Positions 2,977 to 57,621 of a stretch of DNA of 64,000 nt are shown in pieces; position 1 is the first letter of the stretch, and each line of letters starts with the position of its first letter. A program made the translations under genes and the position numbers. Source of the stretch: a virus (lineage: Duplodnaviria > Heunggongvirae > Uroviricota > Caudoviricetes); IMG/VR virus record IMGVR_UViG_3300032050_000069. One strand, 5' to 3'. The notes beneath the pieces are model-generated. The model worked only from the letters and a program-made list of their open reading frames with translations. It was not told where the DNA came from and made no database searches.

Positions 2977-4236
2977 GTGGGGTTAGTAAATGAGGCTTTC
3001 TGCCTTGCTCCGTGGATACATACATATAATGGAACATTAGGAGAAAGGAGAGTATGTTGTATTTCATCATTAGAATTAGGAAAGGGTTCAACTCTTTCCG
3101 ATTCCTTTAATGGGGATGAAATAAGACAGCTGAGAAAGGATATGATTGCGGGAAAACAAATAGAATCCTGTAATCTATGTAATAACCAACCTTATGAAAA
3201 CACTTACAAATTTCATTTTAACGGTAATTACAAATACCTAATAGATGAAGTTATAAATAATACAAAAGAAGATGGGACTTATACAGGTCTTCCCATCACA
3301 TTTGATTACCGAAATGATTTATGCAATTTAAAATGTAGAATATGTGGTAGTTCTGCATCATCATCAATCAGAGCAGAATTCACTAAATTCGGTAATTATC
3401 AAAAGGAATCGGAATTACTTTCCGGCACCGAATCCCGCAATCTTTCGGAACTTCAATTAGAAGAAATGTTATTCCTAATTGAAAATACCGATATAAAAGA
3501 AATCTATTGGGCGGGAGGAGAACCTCTTTTCAATATTAATCACTATAAGGTTTTAAACCGTCTTATTGAATTAGGAAAAACCAATGTATTCTTACGATAC
3601 AATACCAATTTTACTAACATTACATTTAGGGAGTTTAATTTTTTAGATATAATTGCTCACTTTGATAGAGTTCACTTTTATTTTTCGCAAGATGGTATAG
3701 GTGAAACTGCTGAGTATTTGAGATATGGACAGAATTTTTCCAAATGGGATTTTAACATTCAGCAAGTAGTAAAAATAAAAAAACCAAAATGGGAATTTTA
3801 TGTTCATTCTGTAATGACAATTCTCACTCTTTTAGATGTTGAAAAGATCATTGAATATGTTCACGAATATGAAAACATAGGAATTAGTTTTTTCAAATGT
3901 TTTTCTGATGAATATAAAGATATACTTACACCTGATTTTTACCCAAAAGAAATTATTACAAAAATAATTGAGGAGAAAATCCAAATTATAGATAATCAAT
4001 ATAGTGGAAGTAGAAAATTAGTTGCAGTAAACTTTTTGGAAAATATGTTAAAAACATTTAATCAAATAGAAAGGAGTGATATACAAACTAAACTTTCATT
4101 TGGTTATATAGATGATTTGGATAAATTGAGACCATACTCAAGAACATTTTCTGATTTTATAAAAGAAGGTAATAATGAACTTTTCCAATATTTAAGTAAA
4201 AGAAAAGCCGAAATTTCAGATAATGATAATAACTGA
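2977..4236 (+). CDS. radical SAM enzyme with N-terminal Cys-rich extension (paralog of 37335..38573)
   Basis: CNLKCRICG is a CxxxCxxC radical-SAM cluster motif. YWAGGEPLF is the glycine-rich SAM-binding motif. N-terminal CLAPW...RRVCC block is shared with the 37335 ORF (CVMPF...KPCC). Confidence 0.6.
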   Translation: MGLVNEAFCLAPWIHTYNGTLGERRVCCISSLELGKGSTLSDSFNGDEIRQLRKDMIAGKQIESCNLCNNQPYENTYKFHFNGNYKYLIDEVINNTKEDGTYTGLPITFDYRNDLCNLKCRICGSSASSSIRAEFTKFGNYQKESELLSGTESRNLSELQLEEMLFLIENTDIKEIYWAGGEPLFNINHYKVLNRLIELGKTNVFLRYNTNFTNITFREFNFLDIIAHFDRVHFYFSQDGIGETAEYLRYGQNFSKWDFNIQQVVKIKKPKWEFYVHSVMTILTLLDVEKIIEYVHEYENIGISFFKCFSDEYKDILTPDFYPKEIITKIIEEKIQIIDNQYSGSRKLVAVNFLENMLKTFNQIERSDIQTKLSFGYIDDLDKLRPYSRTFSDFIKEGNNELFQYLSKRKAEISDNDNN

Positions 4237-7429: not shown

Positions 7430-9727
7430 ATGAAAAAACTATTTGTTACAACTATACTTTTATTAATTTCTTTTTTTGGGTTTGGGCAGTCAATAACGAC
7501 ACCCGAACCCAAAACATTTACACTTAATACTGCTGGACAAGATGCTAGTGGTTTTGTGTTAAGTGGATTTGGTGCAACCGAAACTCTATTAGTTGCAATC
7601 GGATTACCAACTGCACCAACCGGCACAACTTTTTATATGACCCGATTTGATGGTATGACACCAGCAACGGGTTTTAATTTTAGTGGTAATAAGACCCGTT
7701 TAGTTTTTACCGGAACAATGGAAGGCATTAACATCGCATTATCTACCTTAAAAATAAACACAACGGGAACTGCCGGTAACATACAAATATCTGTATCAGC
7801 AACCGTAAATCCTTCGGGTTATTTCTACAATCCAAACAATGGACACTTTTATAGACCAATATCAACGGGAGCAACTTATACAAATGCAAAAACATTATCA
7901 TCACAACAAACATTTAAAGGTCAAACTGGATATCTTGTAACAATAACTTCTGCGGATGAAGATGCTTTTATTTTTAATAATGTACCACAAAGTAATATAT
8001 GGTTTGCATTAACAGATGAAGTGACAGAAGCTCAATGGAAAATAGATGCGGGTCCTGAGGCTGGAACTCTTATCAAAACATCAAATGGACAAACCGCAGG
8101 AAACATACAAGGTCAATACAATAACTGGGCAGGTGGTGAACCAAATAACAGTGGTAACGAAGATTACGCTGTAACTAAATGGGGTGGTGGTTCTCAATGG
8201 AACGATTTACCAAACCATTTCAGTTGTGCTTATGTAATTGAATTTGGAACTTGGACAAATCCCGATGACCAGACATTTACTGAATTCGTTTCTAATAGTG
8301 TTATACATTCAAACGGAAACACATTAAGAGCACAATTCACATTTAATTTCGGAAGTAATATAGATGAAACTAAATTTAAATCAAAAATTATAACATCCAC
8401 CGATGATATAACATACAATACAAACAATGCTTTAGTTGCACTTAATGGTATTGGTAGAGTAGATTTAACATCACAAATAGATACCTCAACAATTGTAGGT
8501 AGTGGATTTAAAGCAACAATCAATCCAGGTCAGGTTGAGTATTCATATACAAATCCAAATGCAAGTTGGTTAGGTGGTAATTCTCGATTACTAATTGATA
8601 TGAGAACATTTGGTAGCACTGTTCCTTCAACAATTACAAATGTAAAAATATTTGATGCTTATGATGGACCGGTAACTTTTATAAGTAGTGATGCGGCTTG
8701 GGCTCAGTATAATGTTCCTTCACCACTTACAAAAATAACCGATGGAACATCTGCTTTTAACGCTAATATAAGAAATGTAAATGGATGGAATACCGATTAT
8801 GCTTTTACATCAAATCCAACATTTGGACAAAATCGAATAAACAAATACCATAAAATTTCTATGGAGATTACACAAAGTGATTTACTTACCTTATTGGGAA
8901 GTGTGATTACTGTTGGTGATGTTTATTTGGCATTTAAAGAATTTGCAGATAGGGGTATATTAGGAGATGAAAGTAAGTATTTTACTTCTGGTATTCAATT
9001 TCATAATGCGGATGTAAATGATGATGGGGTATTTGATGAGAGAGATTGTTACACATTATTAACACATTTGCAAGGCACAACTTCTTTATGGCCAAATCCA
9101 CCGGCATTAGGTGATATAATGAAGATTGTAACATCAACGGCGTATGATGGTATTACAAAACAAAATTGGAATACATACACAGGAATTACGAGATATAGAT
9201 ACCCATTCGCGTTTGCAAGTGGTATTCTAAATTCATATAATTTAGATGTTACTTGGAAGGGTGATGTAAACCTTTCTCATTCTTCTCAACCAACAGGATT
9301 TGTAACATCAGCAAATAGTTCAGTTTCAGAAATAAAATCTATGGCTGTATCATCTAATTCAATAGGAGATGTTGAAGCAGAAATTATGATGGAAAAAGTT
9401 GGTGATAGTGTTATTGCAACAATTGAATTAAATCCAAATGGTAATCAAATAGGAGCAACTCAATTTGATATGTTTTTTGATAATTCAGTATTAGAATTTA
9501 GTTCAATACAATTTAGTAATACCAATTCTACAAACTTCGGTAGGAATAACGGCTCAACCATCAGCATTGGTAGTTTAAATACCTCTGGTGGAACGATTTC
9601 TAATATAGGGTATAAAGTTACATTTAAACCAAAGACAACCGTTACAAACCTATTAGGATTGATTTCTGTAAAAAGTGTTGAAACTCTTAATACATCATTA
9701 AATAAAATAAATGTAAAAGTATTGTAA
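7430..9727 (+). CDS. secreted large protein with C-type-lectin-like domain, dockerin-like Ca-binding motif and cohesin-like C-terminal domain
   Basis: Signal peptide. WFALTDE...WKIDAG...NNWAGGEPNNSGNEDYAVTKWGGGSQWNDLPN carries the CTLD WIGL-like / GEPNN / WND motifs. DVNDDGVFDERDCYTLLTHL is dockerin-repeat-like. C-terminus is homologous to the C-terminus of the 5743 ORF. Confidence 0.45.
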   Translation: MKKLFVTTILLLISFFGFGQSITTPEPKTFTLNTAGQDASGFVLSGFGATETLLVAIGLPTAPTGTTFYMTRFDGMTPATGFNFSGNKTRLVFTGTMEGINIALSTLKINTTGTAGNIQISVSATVNPSGYFYNPNNGHFYRPISTGATYTNAKTLSSQQTFKGQTGYLVTITSADEDAFIFNNVPQSNIWFALTDEVTEAQWKIDAGPEAGTLIKTSNGQTAGNIQGQYNNWAGGEPNNSGNEDYAVTKWGGGSQWNDLPNHFSCAYVIEFGTWTNPDDQTFTEFVSNSVIHSNGNTLRAQFTFNFGSNIDETKFKSKIITSTDDITYNTNNALVALNGIGRVDLTSQIDTSTIVGSGFKATINPGQVEYSYTNPNASWLGGNSRLLIDMRTFGSTVPSTITNVKIFDAYDGPVTFISSDAAWAQYNVPSPLTKITDGTSAFNANIRNVNGWNTDYAFTSNPTFGQNRINKYHKISMEITQSDLLTLLGSVITVGDVYLAFKEFADRGILGDESKYFTSGIQFHNADVNDDGVFDERDCYTLLTHLQGTTSLWPNPPALGDIMKIVTSTAYDGITKQNWNTYTGITRYRYPFAFASGILNSYNLDVTWKGDVNLSHSSQPTGFVTSANSSVSEIKSMAVSSNSIGDVEAEIMMEKVGDSVIATIELNPNGNQIGATQFDMFFDNSVLEFSSIQFSNTNSTNFGRNNGSTISIGSLNTSGGTISNIGYKVTFKPKTTVTNLLGLISVKSVETLNTSLNKINVKVL

Positions 9728-10617
9728 TGAGAAAACTAATAATCATATTATCCTTACTTTGTATAACTTTTGTTTCAACCGCACAAATCCAAAAACCGGA
9801 TACATTACAATTATCTCCAAAAGAATTGTTTGGTGAAAGCGATGATTGGAACGATGTGGGTATATTACAATCTTATATTGATTTTTCAAAAGATGTTCTT
9901 TCATCATCAAACCTTTCAGTTGGTATAATTGGAAAGCAGGTATCCACAACTCTTAATTTAGGATATAGTAAATCATCTCTGAATGGTAAGTGGATACATT
10001 CATTCTCAACATCAATAAATCCTATATGGAAATACTACGGTGTTGGTTATGGTTTTAGTAGAAATACCGATAAGAGAACAACTACATTACAAACATTCTA
10101 TTCAACCGATTTTGATTTCCAAAAAGATATTAACTTTTCGTTTATAGATGTATTCAGAACTAAAAAGTGGGGAACATTTGGATATAGCTTAATAGCATCA
10201 AAAACATATTGGGATTCATATCAAGGTGAATGGGAAGGAAAATATACAGTAAATGCAAATGGTGATTTTTTAGATTTGATTTATCCCCAAATGCCAGCAT
10301 CATCCGAAACAACATATAAAGGGATGTTAATGTACACATATACAATTAAAACAAAAAGAGTTAATATATCACCACAAATATTTGCTATGAGTGATGTGTA
10401 TGTAGACTTTAAAGATGGTGAAACTGATTTTGGATATAAAAACGATTTTAATTTAGACCTGTATTATGGAACATCATTTGATTGGAAAATAACTAAAAGG
10501 TTTATATTAAACACCAATATAAGATATAATACAACTTGGGATAAATTAAGTGAATCAGTTGGGTTCAAAAAAAGTAACCCACTATTATTTATGATAGGAA
10601 CAAACTTTCAATTTTAG
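9727..10617 (+). CDS. secreted protein, possible outer-membrane beta-barrel
   Basis: Signal peptide MRKLIIILSLLCITFVSTAQ. Alternating hydrophobic pattern. C-terminal ...MIGTNFQF aromatic end as in OM beta-barrels. Confidence 0.3.
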   Translation: MRKLIIILSLLCITFVSTAQIQKPDTLQLSPKELFGESDDWNDVGILQSYIDFSKDVLSSSNLSVGIIGKQVSTTLNLGYSKSSLNGKWIHSFSTSINPIWKYYGVGYGFSRNTDKRTTTLQTFYSTDFDFQKDINFSFIDVFRTKKWGTFGYSLIASKTYWDSYQGEWEGKYTVNANGDFLDLIYPQMPASSETTYKGMLMYTYTIKTKRVNISPQIFAMSDVYVDFKDGETDFGYKNDFNLDLYYGTSFDWKITKRFILNTNIRYNTTWDKLSESVGFKKSNPLLFMIGTNFQF

Positions 10618-10620
10618 GAT

Positions 10621-10977
10621 ATGAAATGGAGTAAAATTATAATAATGTGTTGTATGGTTTTTATGATTTCTTGTTATAAAGAAGAAATAGAGCCAACTCC
10701 TCAGCCAAAACCTTTGGTAGATATTTTTACATATACTGAAACATCAGTAAATGATGGACAAGAAATTATGTTTAGATTAAATTCAGATAGTTTGTATATA
10801 ATAAAATTAATTGATAAACCAACGAATCAGGTGGTAAGTAAAGAAAAGATTTTTGGTAAAATTGGTGATAATAAAATAAAGATTTACACTAAAACCCTAC
10901 AAAGTAAATATTTATATTTGGTTTTGGAAAATGTTAATAGAAAAGAATTAAAAAAAACAACATTAATACTTAAATAA
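10621..10977 (+). CDS. small lipoprotein with T9SS-CTD-like C-terminal segment
   Basis: Lipobox-like ...MISCYKEE. C-terminal IIKLIDKPTNQVVSKEKIFGKIGDNKIKIYTKTLQSKYLYLVLEN resembles the Por secretion sorting domain pattern. Confidence 0.35.
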   Translation: MKWSKIIIMCCMVFMISCYKEEIEPTPQPKPLVDIFTYTETSVNDGQEIMFRLNSDSLYIIKLIDKPTNQVVSKEKIFGKIGDNKIKIYTKTLQSKYLYLVLENVNRKELKKTTLILK

Positions 10978-16231: not shown

Positions 16232-18709
16232 ATGAATCGTTTCTTTTTATTGTTGTTACTATTGCCAAATTTATTATTTTCGCAGGTAACAATCAAAGGT
16301 GTTACAAAATCCAAATCGGAAACACTTTATTTCTCCCACATTTCTTTTAAAAACCCAAATAGTGATGTTTTTACAACAATTTCAGACACCGAAGGAAAAT
16401 ACTCTATTGTATTAAAAGAAGGTAAGTATCAAATCAAATCTTCATTCGTTGGATATAAGGAATATACAAATGAGGTGGTGTTTGATAGAGATACTGAATT
16501 TGATATATTATTTCCAGATGATGCCAAACAATTATCCGAAGTTGTCGTAAGAAGTGTTTCTCAAAAGGTAACGGAAGCGGCAGTAGTAAGAACAATACGA
16601 AATAGTAATGTAGTATCGGATGGGTTATCAATTGATTTTATTAAAAAAACACCCGATAGAAATGTGGGCGATGCACTTAAAAGAGTAAGTGGGGTTACGA
16701 TACAAAACGATAAGTTTGTATTAGTAAGAGGATTAGCGGATAGATATAATTCAGCTCTACTTAACAAAACCCAACTACCATCAACCGAACCTGATAGAAG
16801 AGCATTTTCATTTGATATAATACCAACATCTCTAATAGATAACATCATAGTTTCTAAATCAGCATCAGCAAATCAACCAGGCGATTGGGCAGGTGGATTA
16901 GTCCAAATAACTACAAAAGAAGTATCTGATAACTTTTTTAATATATCTTTGGGAAGTGGTTGGGGTTCGGTTTCAACTTTGAGAGATTTCAAGTTAGTTC
17001 AACCTACCGATTTCCCCTCCACATTCCCTTCCACTTACAAATACCGAATAAGTAGTAATGGTGATAAAAGAGCTTACACTAAACTACTTACCAATCCCTC
17101 TACCGATGAATTACAATCTATTCCAAACTTAAATGGTGGATTATCATTTGGATATACAAAAGGTAAATGGAATTCATTATTTAGTTCCACAATACGAAAT
17201 GGATTTACAATAAATAATATTGATAGAAAAGATTATCAATCATCAAGTGAATTGGCGTATAATTACAAAGATGTTTTATTTACAAAAAGATTTTCCACAA
17301 ATGGTTTATTTAATTTCACTTATTTAGGTGAAAATCGATATAGTTGGAAAACATTAGTGAACTACCAAAAGGATGATACATACTTAACCCGTAATGGTGA
17401 TAACTTTGATAATGTTCAGAATGTTTTATCTACTGCATCAAATCACATTAATAATTTAGTAATTAGTTCTCAATTTGATGGTAAAATCGAAACATTAGAT
17501 TTCAATTTAGGATACACATACACTTTTAGAGAGCAACCTGATTATCGAATAAACCCAATTACAAAATCATTAGGAGTAAACGAACCATACCAAACTGCAT
17601 GGAGAGATACCTATCGTTTTTGGAGTGTGATGGATGAGAACTCTTTTAATGGTAATATAAACAAACAAATAGGAGATATAAAAATAGGTGGTGGCTATCT
17701 AAAAAGAATTAGAGGATTTAATGCTAGAATATTCCGTAATCTATCGACTGATATGTTAGATGAGATTACAAACAACACCGATAGATACACAGCCGATTTT
17801 GATTTGGGTTCTCTTTATACAATGTATGATACTGAATTTGGTAAATGGAAACTAAACACCGGATTAAGAGGTGAGTATAACCTATTCAATGTATCAACCG
17901 CAGATTTTAGTGGTCAAAAGGTAAATGTAGATAGAAAATATTTGGATATATTACCATCGCTAAATCTTTCATACAACGAAGAAAAAACAAAGTATAGATT
18001 TTCATTAAGTAAAACATTAGCAAGACCGGAGTTTAGAGAAGTAGCTAATTTTGCTTATTATGATTTCGTTAGAAACGCACAAATATTAGGAAACTCAAAG
18101 TTAGAAAAATCTGACATATATAATGTAGACCTTAAATACGAATGGTATCCAAAGGTGGGTGAGAACATTTCACTTTCTCTATTTGGTAAGAACTTTATCA
18201 AACCAATTGAACAAATCGTAGCAGATGGTTCAGTTCCATCAAACTTATTATTGACTTATACAAACCCTAATTCAGCTATCCTATATGGTGTTGAATTGGA
18301 AGTTCGTAAAAAAATAAACGATTGGTTTGATTTTTACACAAACGCTTCGGTAATGAATTCAGAAGTAGAAGTGAATGGTGTGAAAAGACAATTGCAGGGA
18401 CAATCAAACTATGTGTTAAATAGTGGAGTAAACATTCATAAAAAGAAAAATACTATTAACATAACTTACAATAGAGTTGGCGATAGAATTTCAGCAGTAG
18501 GGTTTCAGGGTTACCCAAACATCTTTGAAAATAGTAGAGATGTATTAGATTTAACCTTTTTACATAAACTTCCAAAAGGAGAAATAAAACTGGCAATAGG
18601 TGATGTATTTGCGCAACCATCGATTTATTACCAAAAGTTACAAAACCGAAATCTAATAAAAACAAACAACGAACAAACAATTTCTTTAACATTAAATTTG
18701 AATTTATGA
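16232..18709 (+). CDS. TonB-dependent receptor-like outer-membrane protein (SusC/RagA-like) with N-terminal carboxypeptidase-regulatory-like domain
   Basis: Signal peptide. ...GVTKSKSETLYFSHISF...TDTEGKYSI matches CarbopepD_reg-like. ...DRNVGDALKRVSGVTIQ...VRGLADRYNSALLNKTQLP is the TonB plug signature. 825 aa. Confidence 0.55.
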   Translation: MNRFFLLLLLLPNLLFSQVTIKGVTKSKSETLYFSHISFKNPNSDVFTTISDTEGKYSIVLKEGKYQIKSSFVGYKEYTNEVVFDRDTEFDILFPDDAKQLSEVVVRSVSQKVTEAAVVRTIRNSNVVSDGLSIDFIKKTPDRNVGDALKRVSGVTIQNDKFVLVRGLADRYNSALLNKTQLPSTEPDRRAFSFDIIPTSLIDNIIVSKSASANQPGDWAGGLVQITTKEVSDNFFNISLGSGWGSVSTLRDFKLVQPTDFPSTFPSTYKYRISSNGDKRAYTKLLTNPSTDELQSIPNLNGGLSFGYTKGKWNSLFSSTIRNGFTINNIDRKDYQSSSELAYNYKDVLFTKRFSTNGLFNFTYLGENRYSWKTLVNYQKDDTYLTRNGDNFDNVQNVLSTASNHINNLVISSQFDGKIETLDFNLGYTYTFREQPDYRINPITKSLGVNEPYQTAWRDTYRFWSVMDENSFNGNINKQIGDIKIGGGYLKRIRGFNARIFRNLSTDMLDEITNNTDRYTADFDLGSLYTMYDTEFGKWKLNTGLRGEYNLFNVSTADFSGQKVNVDRKYLDILPSLNLSYNEEKTKYRFSLSKTLARPEFREVANFAYYDFVRNAQILGNSKLEKSDIYNVDLKYEWYPKVGENISLSLFGKNFIKPIEQIVADGSVPSNLLLTYTNPNSAILYGVELEVRKKINDWFDFYTNASVMNSEVEVNGVKRQLQGQSNYVLNSGVNIHKKKNTINITYNRVGDRISAVGFQGYPNIFENSRDVLDLTFLHKLPKGEIKLAIGDVFAQPSIYYQKLQNRNLIKTNNEQTISLTLNLNL

Positions 18710-24902: not shown

Positions 24903-26069
24903 ATGAAAAACATCTTAATCCACTGTGAAAAGAAGTTCGTTGATGCCCTTCTAAATAATTCTCCATTTTTAGAAAAAGATTATTACTCTTATTCAACTGA
25001 TGAAATAACAAATTTATTAGAAGGGTATAACATTAAAATCGCAAGTGGGAAAAAGATAGAGAACGAAAGTGAGTATAGTGTTATAATAATTGATGAGTTA
25101 TCCGATTATAATATACACAATACAACATCGGTTTATTATTTTATACCTCCCATAGATTTTAACATTTCCGACCCATTCATAATGAGTAGGTGGCCAGAAT
25201 CAACATTAGATTCAAAAAGTGAAAATAAAGTTAAATGGGCAGAATCATTATATCCTAATCTAAAGTTTTTGGGTTCTAATTTATATCAAAGCGAAAATCA
25301 GATATTTGATTTATCATTGGTTTTAAATTTGAATAATCATAGCGGTAATTGGGGTAAGTATCATTTTGCAGCAGATAGATTATTTAAAGCAATTAATCAA
25401 AAAGCGTATAGATTGGATTATACCTTTAGAGAAGTTAAAAAAGAAAATAGAGTAAAATTTTTATTTGATTTAATAAATACATTAGATGAAAAGGAGATAG
25501 AGGAAATAAAAGTTTCTATGCATGGTGGATTTTTAAATAACGAAACTTATTATAAAGATGTTGAAGAGTTTTTTAAATCACAACAAAATTACTCTCTTTT
25601 TTTAGAATTGATAAAGTTAGATAGAAGATTTTTTAGTTTTGATGAATTATTAAATCCAAAAGCTGGATACGAAGCATGGCCGGTAAACAAATTAATTTAT
25701 AACACCCTTTCATCCGACATAGCAATCTATTTTGAAACTGCTAGGGAAAAGCCTGGCATTCTTAATACTATGAATCATTTGATTACCGAAAAAACTATCG
25801 ATTTATTAAATGTTAGAAAACCATTCATTCATATGACAAAAAATGTTGATGAATTTTTAGAACGATTTGGATTTTATAATTACAATAAGGAAATTTTTGA
25901 TAGTATTGAGGTGGATAAGCCTAAATTGATTAAAAAGATACTCAATATGGAAATTCAGTATTTTGAGGTTTTAATCGAAAAATTGAAGAATCTGGCCGAT
26001 AAAAATAAGGATATATTGGATTCATATTACAAAAAAAATACATTTTTATACAATTTAGTTCATAACTAA
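24903..26069 (+). CDS. hypothetical protein
   Basis: ORF-track start 24879 overlaps an upstream 49-aa ORF. ATG at 24903 (MKNILIHC) is the first non-overlapping start. Confidence 0.3.
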   Translation: MKNILIHCEKKFVDALLNNSPFLEKDYYSYSTDEITNLLEGYNIKIASGKKIENESEYSVIIIDELSDYNIHNTTSVYYFIPPIDFNISDPFIMSRWPESTLDSKSENKVKWAESLYPNLKFLGSNLYQSENQIFDLSLVLNLNNHSGNWGKYHFAADRLFKAINQKAYRLDYTFREVKKENRVKFLFDLINTLDEKEIEEIKVSMHGGFLNNETYYKDVEEFFKSQQNYSLFLELIKLDRRFFSFDELLNPKAGYEAWPVNKLIYNTLSSDIAIYFETAREKPGILNTMNHLITEKTIDLLNVRKPFIHMTKNVDEFLERFGFYNYNKEIFDSIEVDKPKLIKKILNMEIQYFEVLIEKLKNLADKNKDILDSYYKKNTFLYNLVHN

Positions 26070-26154
26070 TTGATTTTCAATATAAAAGTTTTTTAGAAAA
26101 AGCTTGTTTTTTTCGATTATTTTTCATAATTTAGACGTATAAAGTTTGAGAGTT

Positions 26155-28221
26155 ATGAAAAAATACAACAACTACCACTCCTCCTTCTGGTTAGAGGAAC
26201 ATGATTTTGATGAGGATATCGTTTTCTCATCCCTTTCCGAACAAAGTGTAGATACTATTAAAAAATATCGTTTATCTTCTGCTCGTAAGGCCATCTCCAA
26301 TTTCGTTTCAATTGCTACTGGAAAAAACATTCCGGTCACATTTGCTACTAACAACTCCTATACCGATGGTAAATCGGTTGTTATTAGTGGTGACATTGAT
26401 AAGGCAGAGAAATTTGACATTGGTGTTGGTTTGGCATTGCATGAGGGTTCTCACATTCTTCTTTCGGATTTTGAATTACTTCGAAATTTGGATTCTAAAA
26501 TTCCAACTTCGTTGTTTGAATTGGCGGCTACTAAAAATTTAGGTAGATACCAAGTGATTGATATGGTGAAGAATTTAGGTAACATTGTAGAAGATAGAAG
26601 AATTGACAACTATATCTACAAAAATGCACCTGGATATAGAGAGTATTACCTTAAACTTTACGAACATTACTTTGGTGATAAGGCCATCGAAAAGGGTTTG
26701 GAAAGTGATGATTTCAAAAAAGAGAATTGTGAATCATATATGTTTAGGTTGATTAACCTAATGAATAAAAAATCAGATTTGACTTCTCTTAAAGGTTTAA
26801 AAGAGATTTGGAAACTATTGGATTTGAAAAACATAGATAGATTAAAAAACTCTATCGATACACATAATGTGGCCTTAGAAATCGCTAGCGTAATCTTTAC
26901 AAACATCGATGTGGTTGAGAATCAAAATAATAATCAATCTGCCGGACAGGGTGAGCCTGATGAGCAGGGTGAGGGTAATCAACAAGATGGTGATGCTGGG
27001 GATATGAAAGGTGATGAAAATGAAACACCCTCTTCAAATGGGCCTTCAATGAGTTCTGACGCTGATGGTGGTAATAGTATGAGTGAATCTTCCGAAGGTG
27101 AATCTTCCGAAGGTGAATCCGATTCTAATGAAGGAAAATCATCTAATTCACTTTCAGATAGTGCTTTGAAGAAACTTAATAGAATCATCAAACAACAAAA
27201 AGAGTTTTTAGATGGTGATGTTAAGAAAAAGAAAATCACTAAAACATTAGAGAATGAGATTACTTCGGTTGAATCGCAGGGTGCTGAGATTGTGCATGTT
27301 GGTGAGGGACTTCATAACTCCAAAGGTTGTGATGTAATCGTTCTTAAAAACCTTACCAAAAAAATGCTTGAAGATGATTCTTTCGGTATGGCATACGCAT
27401 ATCAAGATTGGAAGACAGGTAAAAAGAGTTTAAATCAAGTAATCAAATCTGATGATTTTTCAAAGGCAGAGATGATGGGAACCGTAATGGGTAAAAAATT
27501 GCAGGTTCGTAACGAATCCCGTAACACCATCTTTAATCGCCAGAAAAATGGTAAGATTGATGGTAGAATGATTGCTACTTTGGGATTCGATAATGAAAAT
27601 GTTTTCTCACAAACATTTGTTGATAAGTTTAAGAAAGCTAACATTCACCTTTCTATCGATGCTAGTGGCTCAATGGGAGGTAGAAAATGGAGAGAAACGA
27701 TGATTAACGCAATTGCACTCGCAAAGGCTACCTCAATGATTTCGAATTTAGAATTACAAATTACATTTAGGTATTCAGATAATGATTTGCCGGTAATTGT
27801 ATTCGCTTACGATAGTAGAAAAGATTCATTTCAGAAAATCAAAAGTATCTTCCCTTATCTTAAAGAGTGTGGGACTACGCCAGAGGGATTGACATTCGAA
27901 GCAATCCAAAAGATGTTAGTTCCGGCATCAAACGATGTGGATTCATTCTTTGTAAATATATCAGATGGTGAACCTACCTTTGGTAATAGAAACATTCAGT
28001 ATGGTGGAATGGCAGCCTGTGAGCACACTAAGAAGCAGGTTAATAAGATTAAAGCAAATGGTATTGGAGTTCTTTCTTACTTCGTTTCAGATAACGATTA
28101 CTACTCCGAAGGTTCTAAAACTAAGTTTAAAACGATGTATGGGGCTGATGCGAGGTTTATTAACATCAACTCAATCGGTGAAGTAACCACCACGCTAAAT
28201 AAAATGTTCCTTTCTAAATAA
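26155..28221 (+). CDS. VWA-domain protein with acidic central region (CobT / MoxR-partner-like)
   Basis: Acidic S/E/G-rich low-complexity middle. C-terminal IHLSIDASGSMGG is a MIDAS DxSxS motif. Conserved leader gtttgagagtt-ATG shared with the next gene. Confidence 0.55.
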   Translation: MKKYNNYHSSFWLEEHDFDEDIVFSSLSEQSVDTIKKYRLSSARKAISNFVSIATGKNIPVTFATNNSYTDGKSVVISGDIDKAEKFDIGVGLALHEGSHILLSDFELLRNLDSKIPTSLFELAATKNLGRYQVIDMVKNLGNIVEDRRIDNYIYKNAPGYREYYLKLYEHYFGDKAIEKGLESDDFKKENCESYMFRLINLMNKKSDLTSLKGLKEIWKLLDLKNIDRLKNSIDTHNVALEIASVIFTNIDVVENQNNNQSAGQGEPDEQGEGNQQDGDAGDMKGDENETPSSNGPSMSSDADGGNSMSESSEGESSEGESDSNEGKSSNSLSDSALKKLNRIIKQQKEFLDGDVKKKKITKTLENEITSVESQGAEIVHVGEGLHNSKGCDVIVLKNLTKKMLEDDSFGMAYAYQDWKTGKKSLNQVIKSDDFSKAEMMGTVMGKKLQVRNESRNTIFNRQKNGKIDGRMIATLGFDNENVFSQTFVDKFKKANIHLSIDASGSMGGRKWRETMINAIALAKATSMISNLELQITFRYSDNDLPVIVFAYDSRKDSFQKIKSIFPYLKECGTTPEGLTFEAIQKMLVPASNDVDSFFVNISDGEPTFGNRNIQYGGMAACEHTKKQVNKIKANGIGVLSYFVSDNDYYSEGSKTKFKTMYGADARFININSIGEVTTTLNKMFLSK

Positions 28222-28314
28222 TTGATTATCAACGGCTATAAACCGTTGATTCTCAATAAGAAAATTTTCAAAATAATTGATAAATTGCTTGGAAAATTCA
28301 GAATTATTTCGTAG

Positions 28315-28328
28315 TTTTACTATGTAAT
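28315..28328 (+). promoter_or_regulatory. class-II upstream motif TTTACTATGTAAT (with CTTGGAAAATTC element about 25 nt upstream)
   Basis: Same composite motif precedes genes at 50544, 51331, 61583. Confidence 0.4.
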
Positions 28329-28359
28329 CAGTTTGAGAGTTAAAAACAAAAATAGAGTT

Positions 28360-29574
28360 ATGAAAAAATCACAAAAAGTTTATGAGGCAGGTTTCACTAA
28401 TGAAATCTACAAAATCGAAAAAGTTGGAAATCGATACCTTTTGGTAAATACCGAAGGTGAATACTCCAATACATTTGTTGGCTCGGTAATGAGACGTGAA
28501 GCAGGTGAAAATGGTAAAGCAATTAGAGGCTATGTAAATTCAAAGGGTAGTAATTCTTTTAGAATGGTTGAGATGGCCGAATACAATATGCTTGTTAAAC
28601 CATTAAAAGAAAATGGTGAGGTGAACATTGAGGCCACAAGTGAGCACTCTGAATTACTTCGTATTATCCACGAGGATTCAATCAAATTAAAACCTGATAA
28701 TCTAATTATCAAGGATATAAAATGGAAATACCTTATTCGTTCTGCCGTTAGAGGTAAGAACATTATGATGACAGGGCCGGCGGGTTGTGGTAAAACTATG
28801 GCGGCTAAATTCTTAGTTACCCAATTACAACGACCTGATTTTTACTTCAACTTAGGTTCAACGCAAGACCCGCGAGCAACTTTGGTTGGTAATACCCAAT
28901 TCAATAAAGAGACAGGAACTTACTTCTCTGAATCGGCTTTCGTTAAGGCAATTAAAACTCCTAACGCAATTATCCTTTTGGATGAGTTAAGTAGAGCTCA
29001 CCCTGATGCTTGGAACATTTTGATGACAGTATTAGACCAAAACCAACGATACCTTCGTTTGGATGAGGCAGAGGGTTCACCGATTGTAAAGGTGGCAGAA
29101 GGTGTTACTTTCATCGCTACCGCAAACATCGGTAATGAATACACCGCGACTAGGGTATTGGATAGAGCTATCTTAGACCGTTTTGTTACAATTGAAATGG
29201 ATGTGTTGAATAGTGAAGAAGAATTCACACTACTTAAAAAGATGTATCCTGAGGTGAGTGATGATGACCTTAAAGCGATTGGTGAGATTGCTCACAACAC
29301 AAGAGAGGTGAGCCGTTCAGAGGTTGCTAAGTTGAGTAATATGGTTTCAACGAGAGCATCGGTAGAAATGGCAGGATTACTTTACGATGGATTCTCCCTT
29401 ATGGAGGCCGCAGAGGTTGCTATCTTACCTTTCTTCTCTAATGATGGAGGATTGGAAAGTGAGAGAACTTATGTGAAGCAGTTGGTTCAGAAATACATCA
29501 AAACAACTGACCAAAATCTTTTCAATGAAATGAAAGATGAGAAGGTAGAAAATGAAGAAACTATTGTGTGGTAA
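28360..29574 (+). CDS. MoxR-type AAA+ ATPase (CobS-like)
   Basis: Walker A IMMTGPAGCGKT. Walker B AIILLDELSRAHP. Sensor/arginine region ATANIGNEY...RFV. ATG at 28360 follows the conserved leader. Confidence 0.65.
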   Translation: MKKSQKVYEAGFTNEIYKIEKVGNRYLLVNTEGEYSNTFVGSVMRREAGENGKAIRGYVNSKGSNSFRMVEMAEYNMLVKPLKENGEVNIEATSEHSELLRIIHEDSIKLKPDNLIIKDIKWKYLIRSAVRGKNIMMTGPAGCGKTMAAKFLVTQLQRPDFYFNLGSTQDPRATLVGNTQFNKETGTYFSESAFVKAIKTPNAIILLDELSRAHPDAWNILMTVLDQNQRYLRLDEAEGSPIVKVAEGVTFIATANIGNEYTATRVLDRAILDRFVTIEMDVLNSEEEFTLLKKMYPEVSDDDLKAIGEIAHNTREVSRSEVAKLSNMVSTRASVEMAGLLYDGFSLMEAAEVAILPFFSNDGGLESERTYVKQLVQKYIKTTDQNLFNEMKDEKVENEETIVW

Positions 29575-29594: not shown

Positions 29595-29619
29595 GGGGGG
29601 AGTAATCCCCTCTTTTCTT
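29595..29619 (+). terminator. possible rho-independent terminator
   Basis: gggg-agtaat-cccc hairpin followed by tcttttctt. Confidence 0.4.
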
Positions 29620-29632: not shown

Positions 29633-30232
29633 ATGATTAAAACTAAAAAGGAATTACAATTTATTCAGTTTGTAAAAGATGAGTGTAAAAAACATAATGT
29701 AAAATGTTCGCTCCGACCTTCAAAGTATGTTATAATGGATGGAAATGTAAAATGTAGTGGTTGGTTTGATGAAGAAGTACCGGAATTAGTTGTTGCTACA
29801 AATAGACCCGATTGGATTGAAATACTTGCACATGAATATGGGCATCTAACACAATGGGTAGAACAAGTTCCGATATGGAAAAAGGCAGAAGTTTCATTAG
29901 GGAAAGTGTGGGAGTGGTTAGATGGTAAAAATTGCAGAAGTATCCAAAAGCATATTGGGGTTGCGAGAGATTTGGAATTGGATAATGAAAAAAGGGCAGT
30001 AAAGATAATTAAGAAATTTGGATTGAAGGTTGATTTAGAACATTATGTAAAAAAGGCAAATGCTTATGTTCAGTTTTACAATTGGATGTTGATAACTAGA
30101 AGGTGGAGTAAACCTAAAAATTCTCCATATAAGAATAAAAATTTGGTAAACGCAATGAGTAGTAAGTTTAATATGAAATACGACTCACTAACTCCTAAAT
30201 TGGAAAAAATATTCCAAACCGAAAACATTTAA
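29633..30232 (+). CDS. hypothetical protein with HExxH motif (possible Zn-metallopeptidase-like)
   Basis: LAHEYGHLTQW contains HEYGH. Confidence 0.3.
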   Translation: MIKTKKELQFIQFVKDECKKHNVKCSLRPSKYVIMDGNVKCSGWFDEEVPELVVATNRPDWIEILAHEYGHLTQWVEQVPIWKKAEVSLGKVWEWLDGKNCRSIQKHIGVARDLELDNEKRAVKIIKKFGLKVDLEHYVKKANAYVQFYNWMLITRRWSKPKNSPYKNKNLVNAMSSKFNMKYDSLTPKLEKIFQTENI

Positions 30233-30233: not shown

Positions 30234-30896
30234 ATGATACTAATAGATTATAAAATAATAGAAGTAAAACCCAAACTATTCGCGGTAATTGTGCCAGATG
30301 ATTATCATAGGCCAATGCTATTTTGTAGAGTGCAGGAATACTATGAATCACCTAATCCGCAATTTAAGGGAAAGAGTTTCGATATGTGGGATTATATTGA
30401 ATGGTATAGTAGAAATCACAGCGATGCCTTTACATACGCATTTGATTGGGGTGGGTTCAATATACCATTAGAAATTGCATACACCTGCTATGATACTCTT
30501 ACCGAACCATATACACCATATGATAATATAATGGAGGAGATAGTTCAAAAGGTATATGAAATGAATGATTATAGTTGTGATGGGTATATCATTGGGGCAG
30601 GAGATTTAGTAGGAGAAACATTTAAGCATGAAGTTTGTCATGGTCTTTATTCAACTAATCCTTTATATAAAGAATTAGCAGATGAAATAACGCAAATGAT
30701 ACCTACAAAATTATATAATCAATTTGTAACCAATTTGGTTGATTATGGTTATACATTAGAAGTTATGGATGATGAAATTCAGGCATACCTAATGACTAAT
30801 TGGGAAACCACTTCATTCAGTAAAAAAACAAATAAAAAAGAAATAACAAAATTTAGTAAACTTTATAAACAAACTTTAAATTCATTTTTAAATTAA
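30234..30896 (+). CDS. hypothetical protein with HExxH motif
   Basis: FKHEVCHGLYS contains HEVCH. Adjacent to another HExxH protein. Confidence 0.3.
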   Translation: MILIDYKIIEVKPKLFAVIVPDDYHRPMLFCRVQEYYESPNPQFKGKSFDMWDYIEWYSRNHSDAFTYAFDWGGFNIPLEIAYTCYDTLTEPYTPYDNIMEEIVQKVYEMNDYSCDGYIIGAGDLVGETFKHEVCHGLYSTNPLYKELADEITQMIPTKLYNQFVTNLVDYGYTLEVMDDEIQAYLMTNWETTSFSKKTNKKEITKFSKLYKQTLNSFLN

Positions 30897-31543: not shown

Positions 31544-32464
31544 ATGGAATCATTTGAAGAAAGGTATGCTCGCCAAACTAAAGAACGCGAGGAACAACAA
31601 TTAAAACAACAATTAAAAATCAAAAAAATGGTCAAAACAACAATCATTGGAATCGGAGTATTCCTATTATCAATTATCTTTTTTAAATCTTGTGAAAGAA
31701 TTGATGCAGGGCATGTGGGTGTCAAAGTAAATCTTTATGGTGATAACAAAGGTGTGGATGATGTAGTAGCAGTTACGGGAATGGTATTTTATAATCCAAT
31801 CACAACTGCAATTTATGAGTTCCCTACATTTATTCAACACAAAGAATATAGAAAGACAGAGGATGAGGATAATTCATTCATTGTAAACTCAAAGGATGGT
31901 TCGGAGTTTAGTGTATCGCCTATTATGAACTATTCAGTACAAAGAGAAAAAGTACCGGCTATATTTAGTAAGTATCGTAGACCATTGGTTGATATTGAGG
32001 AAGGATTCTTAAAGACAGCAGTATATGATGCATTCAGATTAGCAACTAACAAATATACGGCAGATGAATTGATTAGTAATAGAGCAGTATTCGAAATCGA
32101 AGTTCGTAGATTATTAGATGCACAATTACTAAAAGAAGGATTTGTTATCAATCAGTTCACATCGAATTTGATTTATCCTGAAACATTTAAGAAATCAATT
32201 GAAGCTAAGAATAATGCAGTTCAGGCAGCATTAAGAGCAGAGAACGAAGTTAAAACGGCAGAAGCACAGGCTAAGATTAAGGTGGCAACTGCGGAAGGTA
32301 ACGCTCAGGCTATGTTGACATCAGCAAAAGCAGAAGCTGAATCAAATAGAATGAAGCAACAAACATTGACACCATTGTTGTTACAATTAGAGTACATTAA
32401 CAAATGGGATGGTAAGTTACCGGTATATGGACAAGTTCCTCAGTTATTCAAAAATCTCCAATAA
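31544..32464 (+). CDS. SPFH/band-7 (stomatin/prohibitin/HflK-C-like) membrane protein
   Basis: N-terminal TM anchor, then SPFH-like core and a C-terminal AEAQAKIKVATAEGNAQAMLTSAKAEAE coiled-coil typical of band-7 proteins. Confidence 0.55.
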   Translation: MESFEERYARQTKEREEQQLKQQLKIKKMVKTTIIGIGVFLLSIIFFKSCERIDAGHVGVKVNLYGDNKGVDDVVAVTGMVFYNPITTAIYEFPTFIQHKEYRKTEDEDNSFIVNSKDGSEFSVSPIMNYSVQREKVPAIFSKYRRPLVDIEEGFLKTAVYDAFRLATNKYTADELISNRAVFEIEVRRLLDAQLLKEGFVINQFTSNLIYPETFKKSIEAKNNAVQAALRAENEVKTAEAQAKIKVATAEGNAQAMLTSAKAEAESNRMKQQTLTPLLLQLEYINKWDGKLPVYGQVPQLFKNLQ

Positions 32465-36164: not shown

Positions 36165-37342
36165 ACATATATCCAATAGATTTTGATGAAAATGCAAATG
36201 GTAAATTTGTAAAGACAACCGATTTTAAAGATAAAGATTGGGTGTTAGGCAACATTTATTGGTATCCATTTTTAGAAAAGATATACAACTTTACATTTAA
36301 TTATTCCGAAGATAATACCATATTGTTTCTTACATATAATGGTATGGCCGAATCATTAATTTCTGAAAGGCAATGGTTTTTAGATGTTAAGAGGCAATTA
36401 GATAGTGGTAATTATAAAAAGGTTGTAGTTTATCAAAATGAAGTAAATTGGGATACTTTTCATAAAATACTGGAAATAGAAGATTTTTTTTACGAAATTT
36501 TTGGAGATGATGAAAGATTTGTATTTGTTAGAAACATTTTCAAATCTAGATTTAACTTCACTAAAATAAATGCTACATATACATTTGGATGTTTTCCATT
36601 TCAATTATTCCATAACTATTCGGAAACTTTAGATTTTAATTATGAGATAGAAAAGCAGTTTCATTTATTTTCAGCAAATTGTAATGTAAAAGAAGAAAGA
36701 CTCCATTTTTATCAATTTTTACAAAAGGGGAATTATTGGGATAAAGTAAATACATCGTTTTTTCTTCCATTATATAATAGGAATAAAAAAAGGTTTGAAA
36801 TTTCAGATTTTGTAAATGAAAAATTTTTACATGCAAATACCGGAAATACGAACTCTTTTGTTTCTCATTTGGGAGAATTGGATTTAAGTATTGGGTATCA
36901 TCCCAAAAAATTAAAATATGATGATTTCAATCAAGTAAAAAACTTAGCATTAAATGATAGTGTTGAATCTTTATTTCAAGTAATTTTTGAAACCCGTTAT
37001 CATTCTCCTTGTGGCATTGTATTAAGTGAAAAGATTTTTAAGGGTTTTTGTTACAAGTCTCCATTTATAGTTTTTGCTCAATATGGTGTAATTAAATTAC
37101 TCAAAGAATTTGGGTTTAAAACATTTGATTGGTTGGTAGATGAGAGTTATGATAATGAATTGGATGATAAGAAAAGATTTGAAATGGTTTTAGCGGAAAC
37201 TAAAAAATTATTAGATACACCATTCGATGAACTTAAATCTAAAATAGAAAAAAATTATGATGTATTAGAGCATAATCATAAAATGGTAAATGAATTTGCC
37301 TTATCAGAAATAGATAAAATATATAAATTATTCGATGTATAA
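36149..37342 (+). CDS. putative glycosyltransferase, GT10 fucosyltransferase-like (paralog of 40707..41933)
   Basis: FQVIFETRYHSPCGIVLSEKIFKG resembles the GT10 FxxxFEN(S/T)...(T/S)EK motif. C-terminal ~120 aa alignable with the 40707 ORF. Confidence 0.35.
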   Translation: MGNIINIYPIDFDENANGKFVKTTDFKDKDWVLGNIYWYPFLEKIYNFTFNYSEDNTILFLTYNGMAESLISERQWFLDVKRQLDSGNYKKVVVYQNEVNWDTFHKILEIEDFFYEIFGDDERFVFVRNIFKSRFNFTKINATYTFGCFPFQLFHNYSETLDFNYEIEKQFHLFSANCNVKEERLHFYQFLQKGNYWDKVNTSFFLPLYNRNKKRFEISDFVNEKFLHANTGNTNSFVSHLGELDLSIGYHPKKLKYDDFNQVKNLALNDSVESLFQVIFETRYHSPCGIVLSEKIFKGFCYKSPFIVFAQYGVIKLLKEFGFKTFDWLVDESYDNELDDKKRFEMVLAETKKLLDTPFDELKSKIEKNYDVLEHNHKMVNEFALSEIDKIYKLFDV

Positions 37343-38573
37343 TAAAGAAACATTTTGTGTGATGCCGTTTATGCACTTTTCCGTTTTTCAGGATGGAAAG
37401 GTAAAGCCGTGTTGTATGGCAAGTGATTTCTTTGAAGAGAACTTTAATGATTATGTTGATTTTGAACAATTTTATAAAAACGAATCTTATGAAAAATTAA
37501 GAGAGGATTTAAAAAGTGGAATAAAGAATAAGATATGTGATGCCTGTTGGAAAACCGAAGAAAGAGGTGGGAGAAGTTTTAGGCAAGAAAAGAATACACA
37601 TTTTCAAAAACAATATGATAAACTTATAAAAGGTGAATCTGATAAAAACGAATTGGTATTTTTAGATGTAAGATTTTCTAATCAATGTAATTTTAAATGC
37701 CGAATGTGTGGAGAGAGGGATTCTACAAGTTGGTATGATGAAAGAGCTGAGTATTGGGAAAAGGAAGTTGTAGATCCTGTGAGAGAAAAACTTAAACAAT
37801 GGAAATTAGACCACAGAGTATATGAACACATTGCTCCATTTAATAAAAAGAAACTTCACATTCTTAAAAATGATTTTAATAAAGAAGAATTAGAGCATTT
37901 GGAATATGTTTATTTAGCAGGAGGAGAACCATTGTACACAAGAAAAGTATGGGATTTCATAGAAATTATACCACATCCTAAAAATGTGACACTACAATTT
38001 CAAACAAACTTTTCTATATTAGAATACAAAGATACTTCTATTTTTGAATTCACAAAAGGATTTAAAAATGTAGTTTATTCTATATCATTAGATGGATTGT
38101 TTGAGACGGGGGAATTTCAAAGAACTAATTTTAAAACACAAAACTTCTTATCTAATCTAAAAAAATTAAACGAAGAGGTAAAGAATAATCCTAACATTAG
38201 CTATGATTTTACCTTTACCGCAACTTTATTAAATGTATTTCAATTTTTTGAAACCTATGATTACCTAATTGATAATGGGTATATAGCAGATTATTCTAAC
38301 ATTAGATTACAAATAGTAAGTTGGCCGAAACATTTAGATGCTAAAAACTTTGGATTAGAAGCTGAAATAGAAGAGTATTTTAGTAGAACTGAAATAAAAG
38401 GAGTTGAAAAGAATCCTTATTTATTGGGAGATATAAAAAATTACTTATTACATATTAAACAAGGGATAGAGGGTGATAAAGAAGAACACTTAACAAATCT
38501 AAAAAATTACTTAAATTGGTCTTCACTTTACAATAACCTACCGATACCAAAACATTTACATAAATTTTTATAA
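37335..38573 (+). CDS. radical SAM enzyme, paralog of 2977..4236
   Basis: CNFKCRMCG (CxxxCxxC), YLAGGEPLY, N-terminal CVMPFMHF...KPCC. Confidence 0.6.
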   Translation: MYNKETFCVMPFMHFSVFQDGKVKPCCMASDFFEENFNDYVDFEQFYKNESYEKLREDLKSGIKNKICDACWKTEERGGRSFRQEKNTHFQKQYDKLIKGESDKNELVFLDVRFSNQCNFKCRMCGERDSTSWYDERAEYWEKEVVDPVREKLKQWKLDHRVYEHIAPFNKKKLHILKNDFNKEELEHLEYVYLAGGEPLYTRKVWDFIEIIPHPKNVTLQFQTNFSILEYKDTSIFEFTKGFKNVVYSISLDGLFETGEFQRTNFKTQNFLSNLKKLNEEVKNNPNISYDFTFTATLLNVFQFFETYDYLIDNGYIADYSNIRLQIVSWPKHLDAKNFGLEAEIEEYFSRTEIKGVEKNPYLLGDIKNYLLHIKQGIEGDKEEHLTNLKNYLNWSSLYNNLPIPKHLHKFL

Positions 38574-50492: not shown

Positions 50493-50523
50493 AAAGACTT
50501 GGAATTTCCAAGTCTTTTTTTTA
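50493..50523 (+). terminator. rho-independent terminator (also contains class-II CTTGGAA element)
   Basis: aagacttgga-attt-ccaagtctt hairpin plus T9. Confidence 0.55.
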
Positions 50524-50524
50524 T

Positions 50525-50538
50525 CTTTACTATGTAAT
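50525..50538 (+). promoter_or_regulatory. class-II upstream motif CTTTACTATGTAAT
   Basis: Identical or near-identical motif at 28315, 51300, 61556. Confidence 0.4.
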
Positions 50539-51226: not shown

Positions 51227-51299
51227 CTCATTGATAATCAATAAAAAATTTTCAAAGAATTATTCAAAAAGGCTTGGAAAATCCAAATTTATTTACTAC

Positions 51300-51313
51300 C
51301 TTTATTATGTAAT
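51300..51313 (+). promoter_or_regulatory. class-II upstream motif TTTATTATGTAAT
   Basis: Preceded by GGCTTGGAAAATCC. Confidence 0.4.
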
Positions 51314-57126: not shown

Positions 57127-57157
57127 CAAGAAAGGTTCTTTGACATTGTGGGAAAAT

Positions 57158-57231: not shown

Positions 57232-57239
57232 CAATTTAT

Positions 57240-57321: not shown

Positions 57322-57326
57322 CAATT

Positions 57327-57399: not shown

Positions 57400-57406
57400 C
57401 ACAATG

Positions 57407-57615: not shown

Positions 57616-57621
57616 ATATAA

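Follow-up and report, generated by a model that had tools for sequence, protein, structure and literature searches.

A phage MoxR-class ATPase and its zincin-like VWA adaptor: a populous lineage of the viral 'CobS/CobT-like' module

Few accessory modules of tailed phages and archaeal viruses are as widespread as the pairs of a MoxR AAA+ ATPase and a VWA-domain protein that go by the label 'CobS/CobT', and we know of no such viral pair for which a client protein has been identified. Here we examine one of these pairs, a VWA adaptor of 688 amino acids (aa) and a MoxR-class AAA+ ATPase of 404 aa, encoded one after the other on the + strand of a 64,000-nucleotide stretch (hereafter the window, to which coordinates refer) of the Caudoviricetes record IMGVR_UViG_3300032050_000069. 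A mechanistic template for such a pair is available (PMC13036017, PMC9976466). In NorQ/NorD, a MoxR AAA+ ATPase and its VWA adaptor enable the insertion of FeB into nitric oxide reductase (PDB 9qh4-9qhg); in NorD an unresolved linker of about 150 residues connects an N-domain with a VWA domain, the finger of the latter enters the NorQ pore, the NorD C-terminus binds the post-sensor-1 loop, and linker and finger are both needed for metal insertion (PMC13036017). In CobS/CobT, the N-terminal domain of CobT (CobT_N) resembles a peptidase M48C domain (one helix, a three-stranded sheet and eight helices) and binds the small subdomain of CobS (bioRxiv 10.64898/2026.07.21.739949). From viruses, clusters of cobST genes have been described and a hijack of host CobN for cobalamin synthesis has been proposed (PMC8651126), while a MoxR protein with a vWA protein bearing an N-terminal metallopeptidase has been described in jumbo phages, where, for group 2.2, a role as assembly chaperone was suggested on the model of the MoxR/VWA pair that Acidianus two-tailed virus carries (PMC7824862).

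The pair in the window is real and well conserved, and is a new, very populous lineage of this already described phage module of MoxR ATPase and metallopeptidase-VWA protein, also known as 'CobST-like'. [quoted passage not shown] The original prediction, made from the DNA letters alone, had already placed the pair among the loosely named phage 'CobS/CobT-like' modules without taking it for clear CobS/CobT orthologues, and both judgements agree with what follows (curated thresholds are missed and the ATPase is nearer to NorQ and CbbQ). The pair is less unusual than the original prediction implied, as MoxR plus metallopeptidase-vWA pairs and viral cobST clusters had been published (PMC7824862, PMC8651126).

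The adaptor gene (26155-28221, +), delimited from its open reading frame (ORF), public gene calls, an alignment of 20 homologues (A1) and a structure model, encodes a zincin-like N-domain, an acidic linker, a putative finger and a VWA domain with a MIDAS. The length of 691 aa originally given corresponds to a frame opened by a TTG at 26146, but the first ATG (26155) and the public gene calls give 688 aa. Four conserved blocks are found both in A1 and in the alignment of 124 representatives from which a family profile was built: the N-domain, the acidic linker (itself variable), a pre-VWA segment, and the VWA domain with the extreme C-terminus. As a profile search of PDB sequences with the full adaptor alignment gave no significant match, structure prediction was needed.

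The most informative feature of the adaptor, missed in the original prediction, is the N-domain (aa 28-255; 26236-26919, +), which is predicted to adopt a zincin-like metallopeptidase fold and carries an invariant HEGSH...E motif. Modelled alone (predicted local distance difference test, pLDDT, 85; predicted template modelling score, pTM, 0.78), it comprises a long helix, a three-stranded sheet, the HExxH helix and a helical bundle, and the predicted structure qualifies as a zincin fold. The HExxH helix spans aa 84-103 and the helix after it aa 131-157. HEGSH (26440-26454, +) provides the HExxH metal-binding/catalytic residues H96, E97 and H100, and EDRRID (aa 146-151; 26590-26607, +) lies on the next long helix, where E146 is the candidate third metal ligand; E146, D147, R148 and D151 are invariant in all 124 family representatives. 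At the level of sequence, HExxH together with a third glutamate ligand (H96, E97, H100 and E146) is thus complete and invariant in 124/124, and for this reason the N-domain most probably binds a metal ion, cleaving a remodelled client or handling metal. When compared with predicted viral structures (BFVD), the N-domain matches the N-termini of proteins of 600-800 aa that carry CobT or VWFA annotations and come from uncultured tailed phages, haloarchaeal tailed viruses and Gordonia phages.

The N-domain is joined to the VWA domain via a long disordered linker, an architecture comparable to that of NorD and CobT. The linker (aa 256-333; 26920-27153, +), recognized from composition and model, is acidic and rich in S, G, N and Q (8 D, 11 E, 17 S, 13 G, 10 N and 6 Q; net charge -17), has pLDDT below 50 over aa 256-329, and differs in length among homologues. 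Immediately before the VWA domain, conservation and Foldseek mark out a segment (aa 432-491; 27448-27627, +) with a long helix and a conserved loop, LQVRNESRNTIFNRQKNGKIDGRMI, which is a candidate finger for an AAA+ pore; R452, R462, G466 and R471 are conserved in at least 92% of the 124 representatives. The VWA domain itself (aa 494-688; 27634-28218, +), identified from Pfam, Foldseek and conservation, contains the MIDAS residues D502, S504, S506, T575 and D604 (DASGSMGG at aa 502-509, T575 in GTTPEG, D604 in NISDGEP) and ends in a conserved tail, ...NKMFLSK. All five MIDAS residues (DxSxS...T...D) are invariant in 124 of 124 representatives. The call of a VWA/MIDAS protein with an acidic linker, made in the original prediction, holds. 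The best PDB matches of the full-length adaptor model in Foldseek were the NorD VWA chains of NorQD complexes from cryo-EM work of 2026 (E 1.6e-7), in a fold library seemingly without CobT entries (no 9uk* chain is found among the VWA matches). Alignments to NorD chains comprising VWA plus finger cover 265-299 columns, exceeding a bare VWA domain.

The gene that follows (28360-29574, +; supported by ORF, public calls and Pfam) encodes the ATPase, for which the initial assignment to the MoxR/CbbQ class stands: Pfam AAA_5 matches with 62.4 bits (6e-17, cut-off 22) and CbbQ_C with 25.0 bits against a cut-off of 20.6 (aa 298-363). In the Walker A motif GPAGCGKT (aa 139-146; 28774-28797, +), six of the eight residues are invariant in the ATPase alignment A2, with P140 and A141 varying. 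D208 and E209 of the Walker B region IILLDELSRA (28969-28998, +) are likewise invariant; here IILLDELSRAHP starts at aa 204, and the DELSRAHP pointed out earlier is present within LLDELSRAHP. ATAN, the R265/R269/R274 region and STR (R332) complete the AAA+ core with sensor and arginine residues invariant in A2. A search of PDB sequences ranks NorQ (4.9e-10, 42.1 bits) above CbbQ (1.6e-8, 37.2 bits) and CobS (4.9e-4, 22.4 bits); in NCBIfam GvpN comes first, though well short of its cut-off; among PHROGs the top match is phrog_249, annotated 'porphyrin biosynthesis' (5e-28), which is the phage CobS-like family; and hhalign against a CobS alignment gives a probability of 94% over the AAA+ core only. 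By these comparisons the ATPase is a MoxR-class protein of the CbbQ/GvpN/NorQ neighbourhood, not a CobS orthologue. At its C-terminus (29500-29571) an acidic tail precedes a conserved hydrophobic/aromatic tip, ...EETIVW, with relatives ending in W or F; this tip could be a docking motif.

The ATPase also carries an N-terminal extension (aa 1-105; 28360-28674, +) with no detectable relatives outside the lineage. The extension was originally put at roughly 130 aa; it is real and lineage-specific, but is closer to 100 aa, with homology to other AAA+ proteins beginning at about aa 97-131. Set against CobS, it is longer by about 68 aa. Within the lineage it is kept at 35-65% identity, while it is absent from the homologue in the huge phage LR756508 and an unrelated 269 aa stand in its place in the Microcystis phage Mel-JY01. 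Searched alone (aa 1-112, 12 homologues) against Pfam, PHROGs, PADLOC and PDB sequences, it returned nothing consistent or significant.

The two genes are linked across much of the family. In 57 of 80 loci on distant IMG/VR viral contigs the same-strand order is VWA gene, then AAA gene, and in four the AAA gene lies upstream. A relative at 46% identity (L007) keeps the order and the shared strand amid different neighbours, and one at 62% identity (L009) has a 125-aa ORF (10269-10646 of that locus), with its own promoter-like cassette, between the VWA and AAA genes. In LR756508, a phage of 484 kb, the genes are adjacent in reversed order. The lineage is large: the N-domain profile finds 1095 clusters at 50% identity, and most of the 150 clusters listed are 580-800 aa long, the shorter ones probably being fragments.

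NorQ/NorD is among the closest described systems. NorQ is the best PDB sequence match of the ATPase and the NorD VWA domain the best structural match of the adaptor, and the two adaptors share both a plan (N-domain, long linker, VWA with a finger, which in the phage protein is a candidate one, and the C-terminus that is functionally important in NorD) and a full DxSxS...T...D MIDAS. However, the adaptors are only 11-15% identical, the phage N-domain is a predicted zincin with HExxH, the phage ATPase has an extra N-terminal domain of about 100 aa and a different helix-2 insert motif, and the setting here is a phage genome with no nor genes. The CbbQ/CbbO Rubisco activase (PDB 6l1q) is comparable in that CbbQ is the second-best PDB match and the ATPase has a CbbQ_C domain; both systems pair a VWA/MIDAS adaptor with a MoxR ATPase, which is hexameric in CbbQ and by analogy may be so in the phage. 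There is no Rubisco context here, and the sequence comparison covers CbbQ. The viral cobST clusters and the MoxR/metallopeptidase-vWA pairs of jumbo phages are the same two-gene module with the same adaptor architecture. In particular, the 'CobT' proteins of Vibrio phage ICP2, Rhizobium phage RHph_N1_10 and phage T5S1 share the HE.GH..(S/T)D motif and the acidic linker with our adaptor, and the BFVD neighbours of its N-domain are these viral proteins. This lineage differs in being too diverged for detection by tblastn with bacterial CobT, in its weak HMM scores (1e-7 to 1e-2) against cultured-phage proteins, and in the orphan N-terminal extension of its ATPase. Its identity to the homologues of the 80 IMG/VR loci is 55-68%.

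By analogy with NorQD and CobST, the 404-aa ATPase would form a hexameric ring on which one 688-aa adaptor docks, with the pre-VWA finger (about aa 432-491) inserted into the pore, the C-terminal tail of the adaptor contacting the ring, and the N-domain parked on the small subdomain of the ATPase. The metal ion of the MIDAS (D502, S504, S506, T575 and D604) would then capture an acidic residue on a client protein, and ATP hydrolysis would twist and stretch the acidic linker, remodelling the client, which the zincin N-domain may cleave, unless it handles metal instead.

Several points weigh against this model. The sequences and models show domain content, motif conservation, gene linkage and fold similarity, while ring formation, finger insertion and use of the MIDAS are carried over from the described systems by analogy, as are docking mode, catalysis and the client. 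The finger region of the adaptor model has a pLDDT of only 42-51, and the Pfam VWA score (23.4 bits) falls just under the cut-off of 23.8. The helix-2 insert of the ATPase has the right length and aligns with the NorQ insert, but reads G177-N-T-Q-F-N-K-E-T-G-T rather than GRxLL/IxxxxT. An intact HExxH would indicate conserved metal binding rather than peptidase activity as such, and H96, H100 and E146 are assigned as a putative metal site from sequence. Finally, the pair need not be adjacent: 19 of the 80 IMG/VR loci have no AAA gene within 6 kb, and 13 kb separate the two genes in Mel-JY01.

One alternative is that the pair is a true cobaltochelatase CobS/CobT (EC 6.6.1.2) that works with host CobN to boost cobalamin synthesis during infection, as proposed for viral cobST (PMC8651126), and we consider this quite unlikely. 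To compare the families, we used the annotated cobS-cobT locus of Sinorhizobium meliloti together with 80 further CobT loci, and an alignment of 28 CobT sequences. The adaptor has the domain order of CobT (M48-like N-domain, disordered acidic linker, and an extended VWA with N-terminal shaft and MIDAS), the ATPase core is homologous to CobS (the 94% hhalign match) and has a 'porphyrin biosynthesis' PHROG as its best hit, the genes are adjacent, and BFVD neighbours are annotated CobT. Moreover, hhalign of the 124-sequence phage profile against the 28-sequence CobT alignment gave three matches, one in the VWA domain (to CobT_C, E 1.9e-4), one in the Glu-helix (E 0.0076) and one over the first helix together with the sheet (E 0.013), which are weak but collinear and span the whole length, with EDRRID aligned to AVEQARVE of CobT; single CobT sequences or low-diversity alignments gave almost nothing, and the 124-sequence profile was needed to see them. 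Yet the curated CobT models are missed widely: the NCBIfam equivalog TIGR01651 scores 15 bits against a cut-off of 759, Pfam CobT_C 14.5 against 21, and the N-terminal Pfam CobT is unmatched. The ATPase is nearer to NorQ and CbbQ (42 and 37 bits) than to CobS (22), and no CobS family is found among the 25 NCBIfam matches listed, of 26. HExxH, kept without exception in the phage family (124/124), occurs in none of the 28 bacterial CobT sequences, which read GDSMALRxACHD at that position, and this points to a different job for the N-domain; the 'CobT' of ICP2, RHph_N1_10 and T5S1 has HExxH in all three cases, followed by an acidic linker and DxSGS. Among the sequences examined, an intact zincin site thus sets the viral 'CobT-like' adaptors apart from the CobT proteins of bacteria. 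At the fourth MIDAS position the phage adaptor has T and CobT has N518, and the gene order is VWA then AAA in the phage and cobS then cobT in S. meliloti. In line with the absence of a cobaltochelatase context, on which the original prediction had made its reading depend, the window holds no CobN-sized ORF (the largest is 825 aa) and no cobalamin gene among those scanned. The promoters, moreover, look Bacteroidota-type (see below), and Bacteroidota hosts often lack the aerobic CobN pathway. On balance, this evidence weighs against a true cobaltochelatase.

A virion-assembly chaperone, in which the fused metallopeptidase trims structural proteins, has somewhat more in its favour and is still improbable in our view. 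Its architecture is that of the MoxR plus N-terminal metallopeptidase-vWA pair for which such a role was proposed (PMC7824862), an invariant HExxH would fit a processing protease, and the phage is large (contigs to 288 kb, 22 tRNA genes). However, no recognisably structural neighbour is found wherever genes could be read. In the window and in a further locus (L003), the pair is surrounded by genes for a glycosyltransferase, a metallophosphoesterase, a Band_7 protein and a radical SAM protein; in L007 by nucleotide and sugar metabolism genes; and in ICP2, T5S1 and RHph_N1_10 (loci L174, L172 and L173) the 'CobT' genes sit among DNA replication genes, with DNA polymerase, primase and sigma factor as neighbours. 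In addition, a host-type promoter-like motif would suggest early or middle rather than late expression. These non-structural neighbourhoods weigh mildly against a structural role, and because the neighbouring genes are metabolic or replicative we lean towards a client among the non-structural proteins of phage or host, in preference to CobN or a part of the virion. It is extremely improbable that the ATPase is instead IetA-like (IetA being the antitoxin ATPase of the IetAS defence), with an N-terminal extension that mimics IetA and so disarms a host defence. The full-length ATPase does match PADLOC IetA (3.4e-10, aa 34-159), NCBIfam IteA (1e-5) and phrog_3757 (8e-11), all within aa 34-168, but the extension scanned alone (12 homologues) matches neither IetA nor phrog_3757, which means that these matches were carried by the generic N-terminal AAA+ helix and the Walker A region; the partner here, moreover, is a VWA protein and not a serine protease. 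With the homology of the N-terminal domain to IetA gone in the extension-only scans, this lead was dropped, and a tblastn of aa 1-170 of the ATPase against plasmids, seeking an annotated IetA, yielded only noise at the level of Walker A.

Within the favoured reading of a MoxR AAA+/VWA-adaptor machine, a bolder version can be put forward, to which we give a low but not negligible chance: phage 'CobT-like' adaptors may belong not to a chelatase but to a novel type of AAA+ protease, as its proteolytic arm. In it a MoxR ring, without threading, would twist a VWA/MIDAS adaptor to which a specific acidic site of the client is bound, and so feed the client to the fused zincin for cleavage at a specific site. 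The bacterial CobT would in that case descend from such a machine, with its peptidase activity lost.

The original prediction had stressed a leader shared by both genes. The window indeed contains two exact copies of the 11-mer GTTTGAGAGTT and no more, at 26144 and 28331. One (26144-26154, +) abuts the ATG of the VWA gene, whereas in the leader of the AAA gene (28331-28359, +) the other is followed by 12 unshared bases (AAAAACAAAAAT) and a second AGAGTT, making 18 bases before the ATG. The two leaders are therefore not one identical contiguous string, and the longest strings common to both are AGTTTGAGAGTTA and AGAGTTATGAAAAAA, of 13 and 15 nt. Since only 26 of 3741 pairs (0.7%) of 40-nt gene-upstream segments in the window share an 11-mer, the match is unlikely to be due to chance. 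Both leaders are predicted to be unstructured, and the 'AAAAATAGAGTTATG' stretch of the AAA-gene leader is identical in L009. A general ribosome-binding role for GAGA/AGAG was considered and rejected, as these strings are not enriched before ATG (7 of 87 genes, against a background of 7.4%).

Further upstream, the AAA gene has a bipartite promoter-like motif, CTTGGAAAATTC-N16-TTTACTATGTAA (28288-28327, +), confirming that a motif precedes the second gene as originally noted; it is present in four copies in the window against 0.00 expected, and the homologous genes of L007 and L009 have kept it upstream. In the four-copy form, CTTGGAAAATTC-N16-TTTAYTATGTAA, it lies at 28288-28327, 50498-50537, 51273-51312 and 61529-61568 (all +). 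Its layout (TTG, a 19-nt spacer and TAnnTTTA) resembles the -33/-7 promoter type of Bacteroidota. The VWA gene is preceded by a degenerate form of the cassette (GCTTG ... TTTAGACGTATAA; 26102-26142, +), which aligns with the cassettes of the AAA gene and of the homologous L009 genes in an alignment covering two window genes and three L009 genes. A like cassette, ending AGAG(T/A)TATG(A/G)AAA, also goes with the two genes in L007 and L009 and with the 125-aa ORF inserted in the latter. Hairpins mark the other ends of the genes. A strong one (28221-28257, +; -14.8 kcal/mol, z-score -5.4), flanked by two TTGATTNTCAA palindromes, lies just 3' of the VWA stop codon, and a terminator-like G+C hairpin followed by a T run (29595-29612, +) lies 3' of the AAA gene. 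The palindrome-containing TAATTGATTNTCAA occurs in the window only at 26068-26080 and 28220-28232, overlapping in each case the stop codon of the gene ahead of the leader, with the second copy forming part of the hairpin; this element could be a terminator or an operator.

These features bear on whether the leader could serve to regulate this pair alone, for instance through a common translational-regulator site on GTTTGAGAGTT...AGAGTTATGAAAAAA that sets the protein ratio. The exact 11-mer at these two sites only, the 13- and 15-nt shared strings, the rarity of such sharing and the TAATTGATTNTCAA with which both intergenic regions begin would all fit that idea, but we judge it very unlikely: the 11-mer is not conserved in L007 or L009, although both keep the pair; the AGAG(T/A)TATG context and the cassette also stand before the unrelated 125-aa ORF of L009; further copies of the cassette lie upstream of other genes in the window (at 50526, 51301 and 61557); and both leaders are predicted to be unstructured. 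A duplicated cassette is the simplest reading. As the promoter and leader cassette also precedes other genes, the shared leader is best read as a duplication of that cassette and not as a pair-specific device, so that the original emphasis on it as an unusual feature of the pair falls away. Each gene has a promoter-like cassette to itself, both of one class; the two are therefore probably regulated together yet transcribed separately, and with a hairpin after each they look like separate transcription units.

The wider setting is that of a large phage. The window has a G+C content of about 32%, nearly all of its ORFs of at least 120 aa are on the + strand, and 22 tRNA genes covering most amino acids lie at 57-61.5 kb (57055-61482, +). 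An identical 688-aa product has been called on at least 23 public contigs, identical public gene calls exist for the ATPase, and the identical locus is read on freshwater and other metagenome contigs. Because identical proteins are encoded on contigs of up to 288 kb, and homologues at 38-45% identity are found on IMG/VR viral contigs, the window is a piece of a large uncultured phage. The only match in a DNA-level search of phage genomes was 369 bp to Mel-JY01. Apart from Mel-JY01 (58% identity) and LR756508 (50%), the phage database has no close relative. An 825-aa gene resembling a TonB-dependent receptor (16232-18709, +), with CarboxypepD_reg, Plug and OMP_b-brl_3 domains, matches the generic subfamily TIGR01782 (5.9e-52, below the family cut-off); an outer-membrane receptor is an unusual gene for a phage. 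The CarboxypepD_reg-bearing receptor-like gene and the promoter-like motifs point to a possible Bacteroidota host. A link from this gene to cobalamin uptake was considered and dropped, no BtuB family being matched but only the generic TIGR01782.

Other genes of the window deserve brief mention. Directly 3' of the ATPase gene are two small ORFs (29633-30232 and 30234-30896, +), each with an HExxH (HEYGH and HEVCH), which match no Pfam, PHROG or PADLOC family and, in NCBIfam, have a single insignificant match (E 0.018, second ORF); the ATPase gene of L009, but not that of L007, also has ORFs of like size (199 and 225 aa) after it. A Band_7/SPFH protein (31544-32464, +) matches phrog_200 (2.4e-66). 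Two radical SAM proteins are encoded (2977-4236 and 37335-38573, +), the latter with its SPASM domain in an unusual N-terminal position, along with a 765-aa protein with a C-type lectin-like domain (7430-9727, +) and an FG-GAP repeat protein (53165-54265, +).

With this locus, a very large and diverse aquatic lineage is added to the viral modules labelled 'CobS/CobT', although the system is of a known type. The locus is of value chiefly for a contrast: viral adaptors keep HExxH, whereas the CobT proteins of bacteria have lost it. Among the sequences examined, this contrast in the HExxH...E site argues against a plain transfer of the label 'cobalamin biosynthesis' to the viral proteins.

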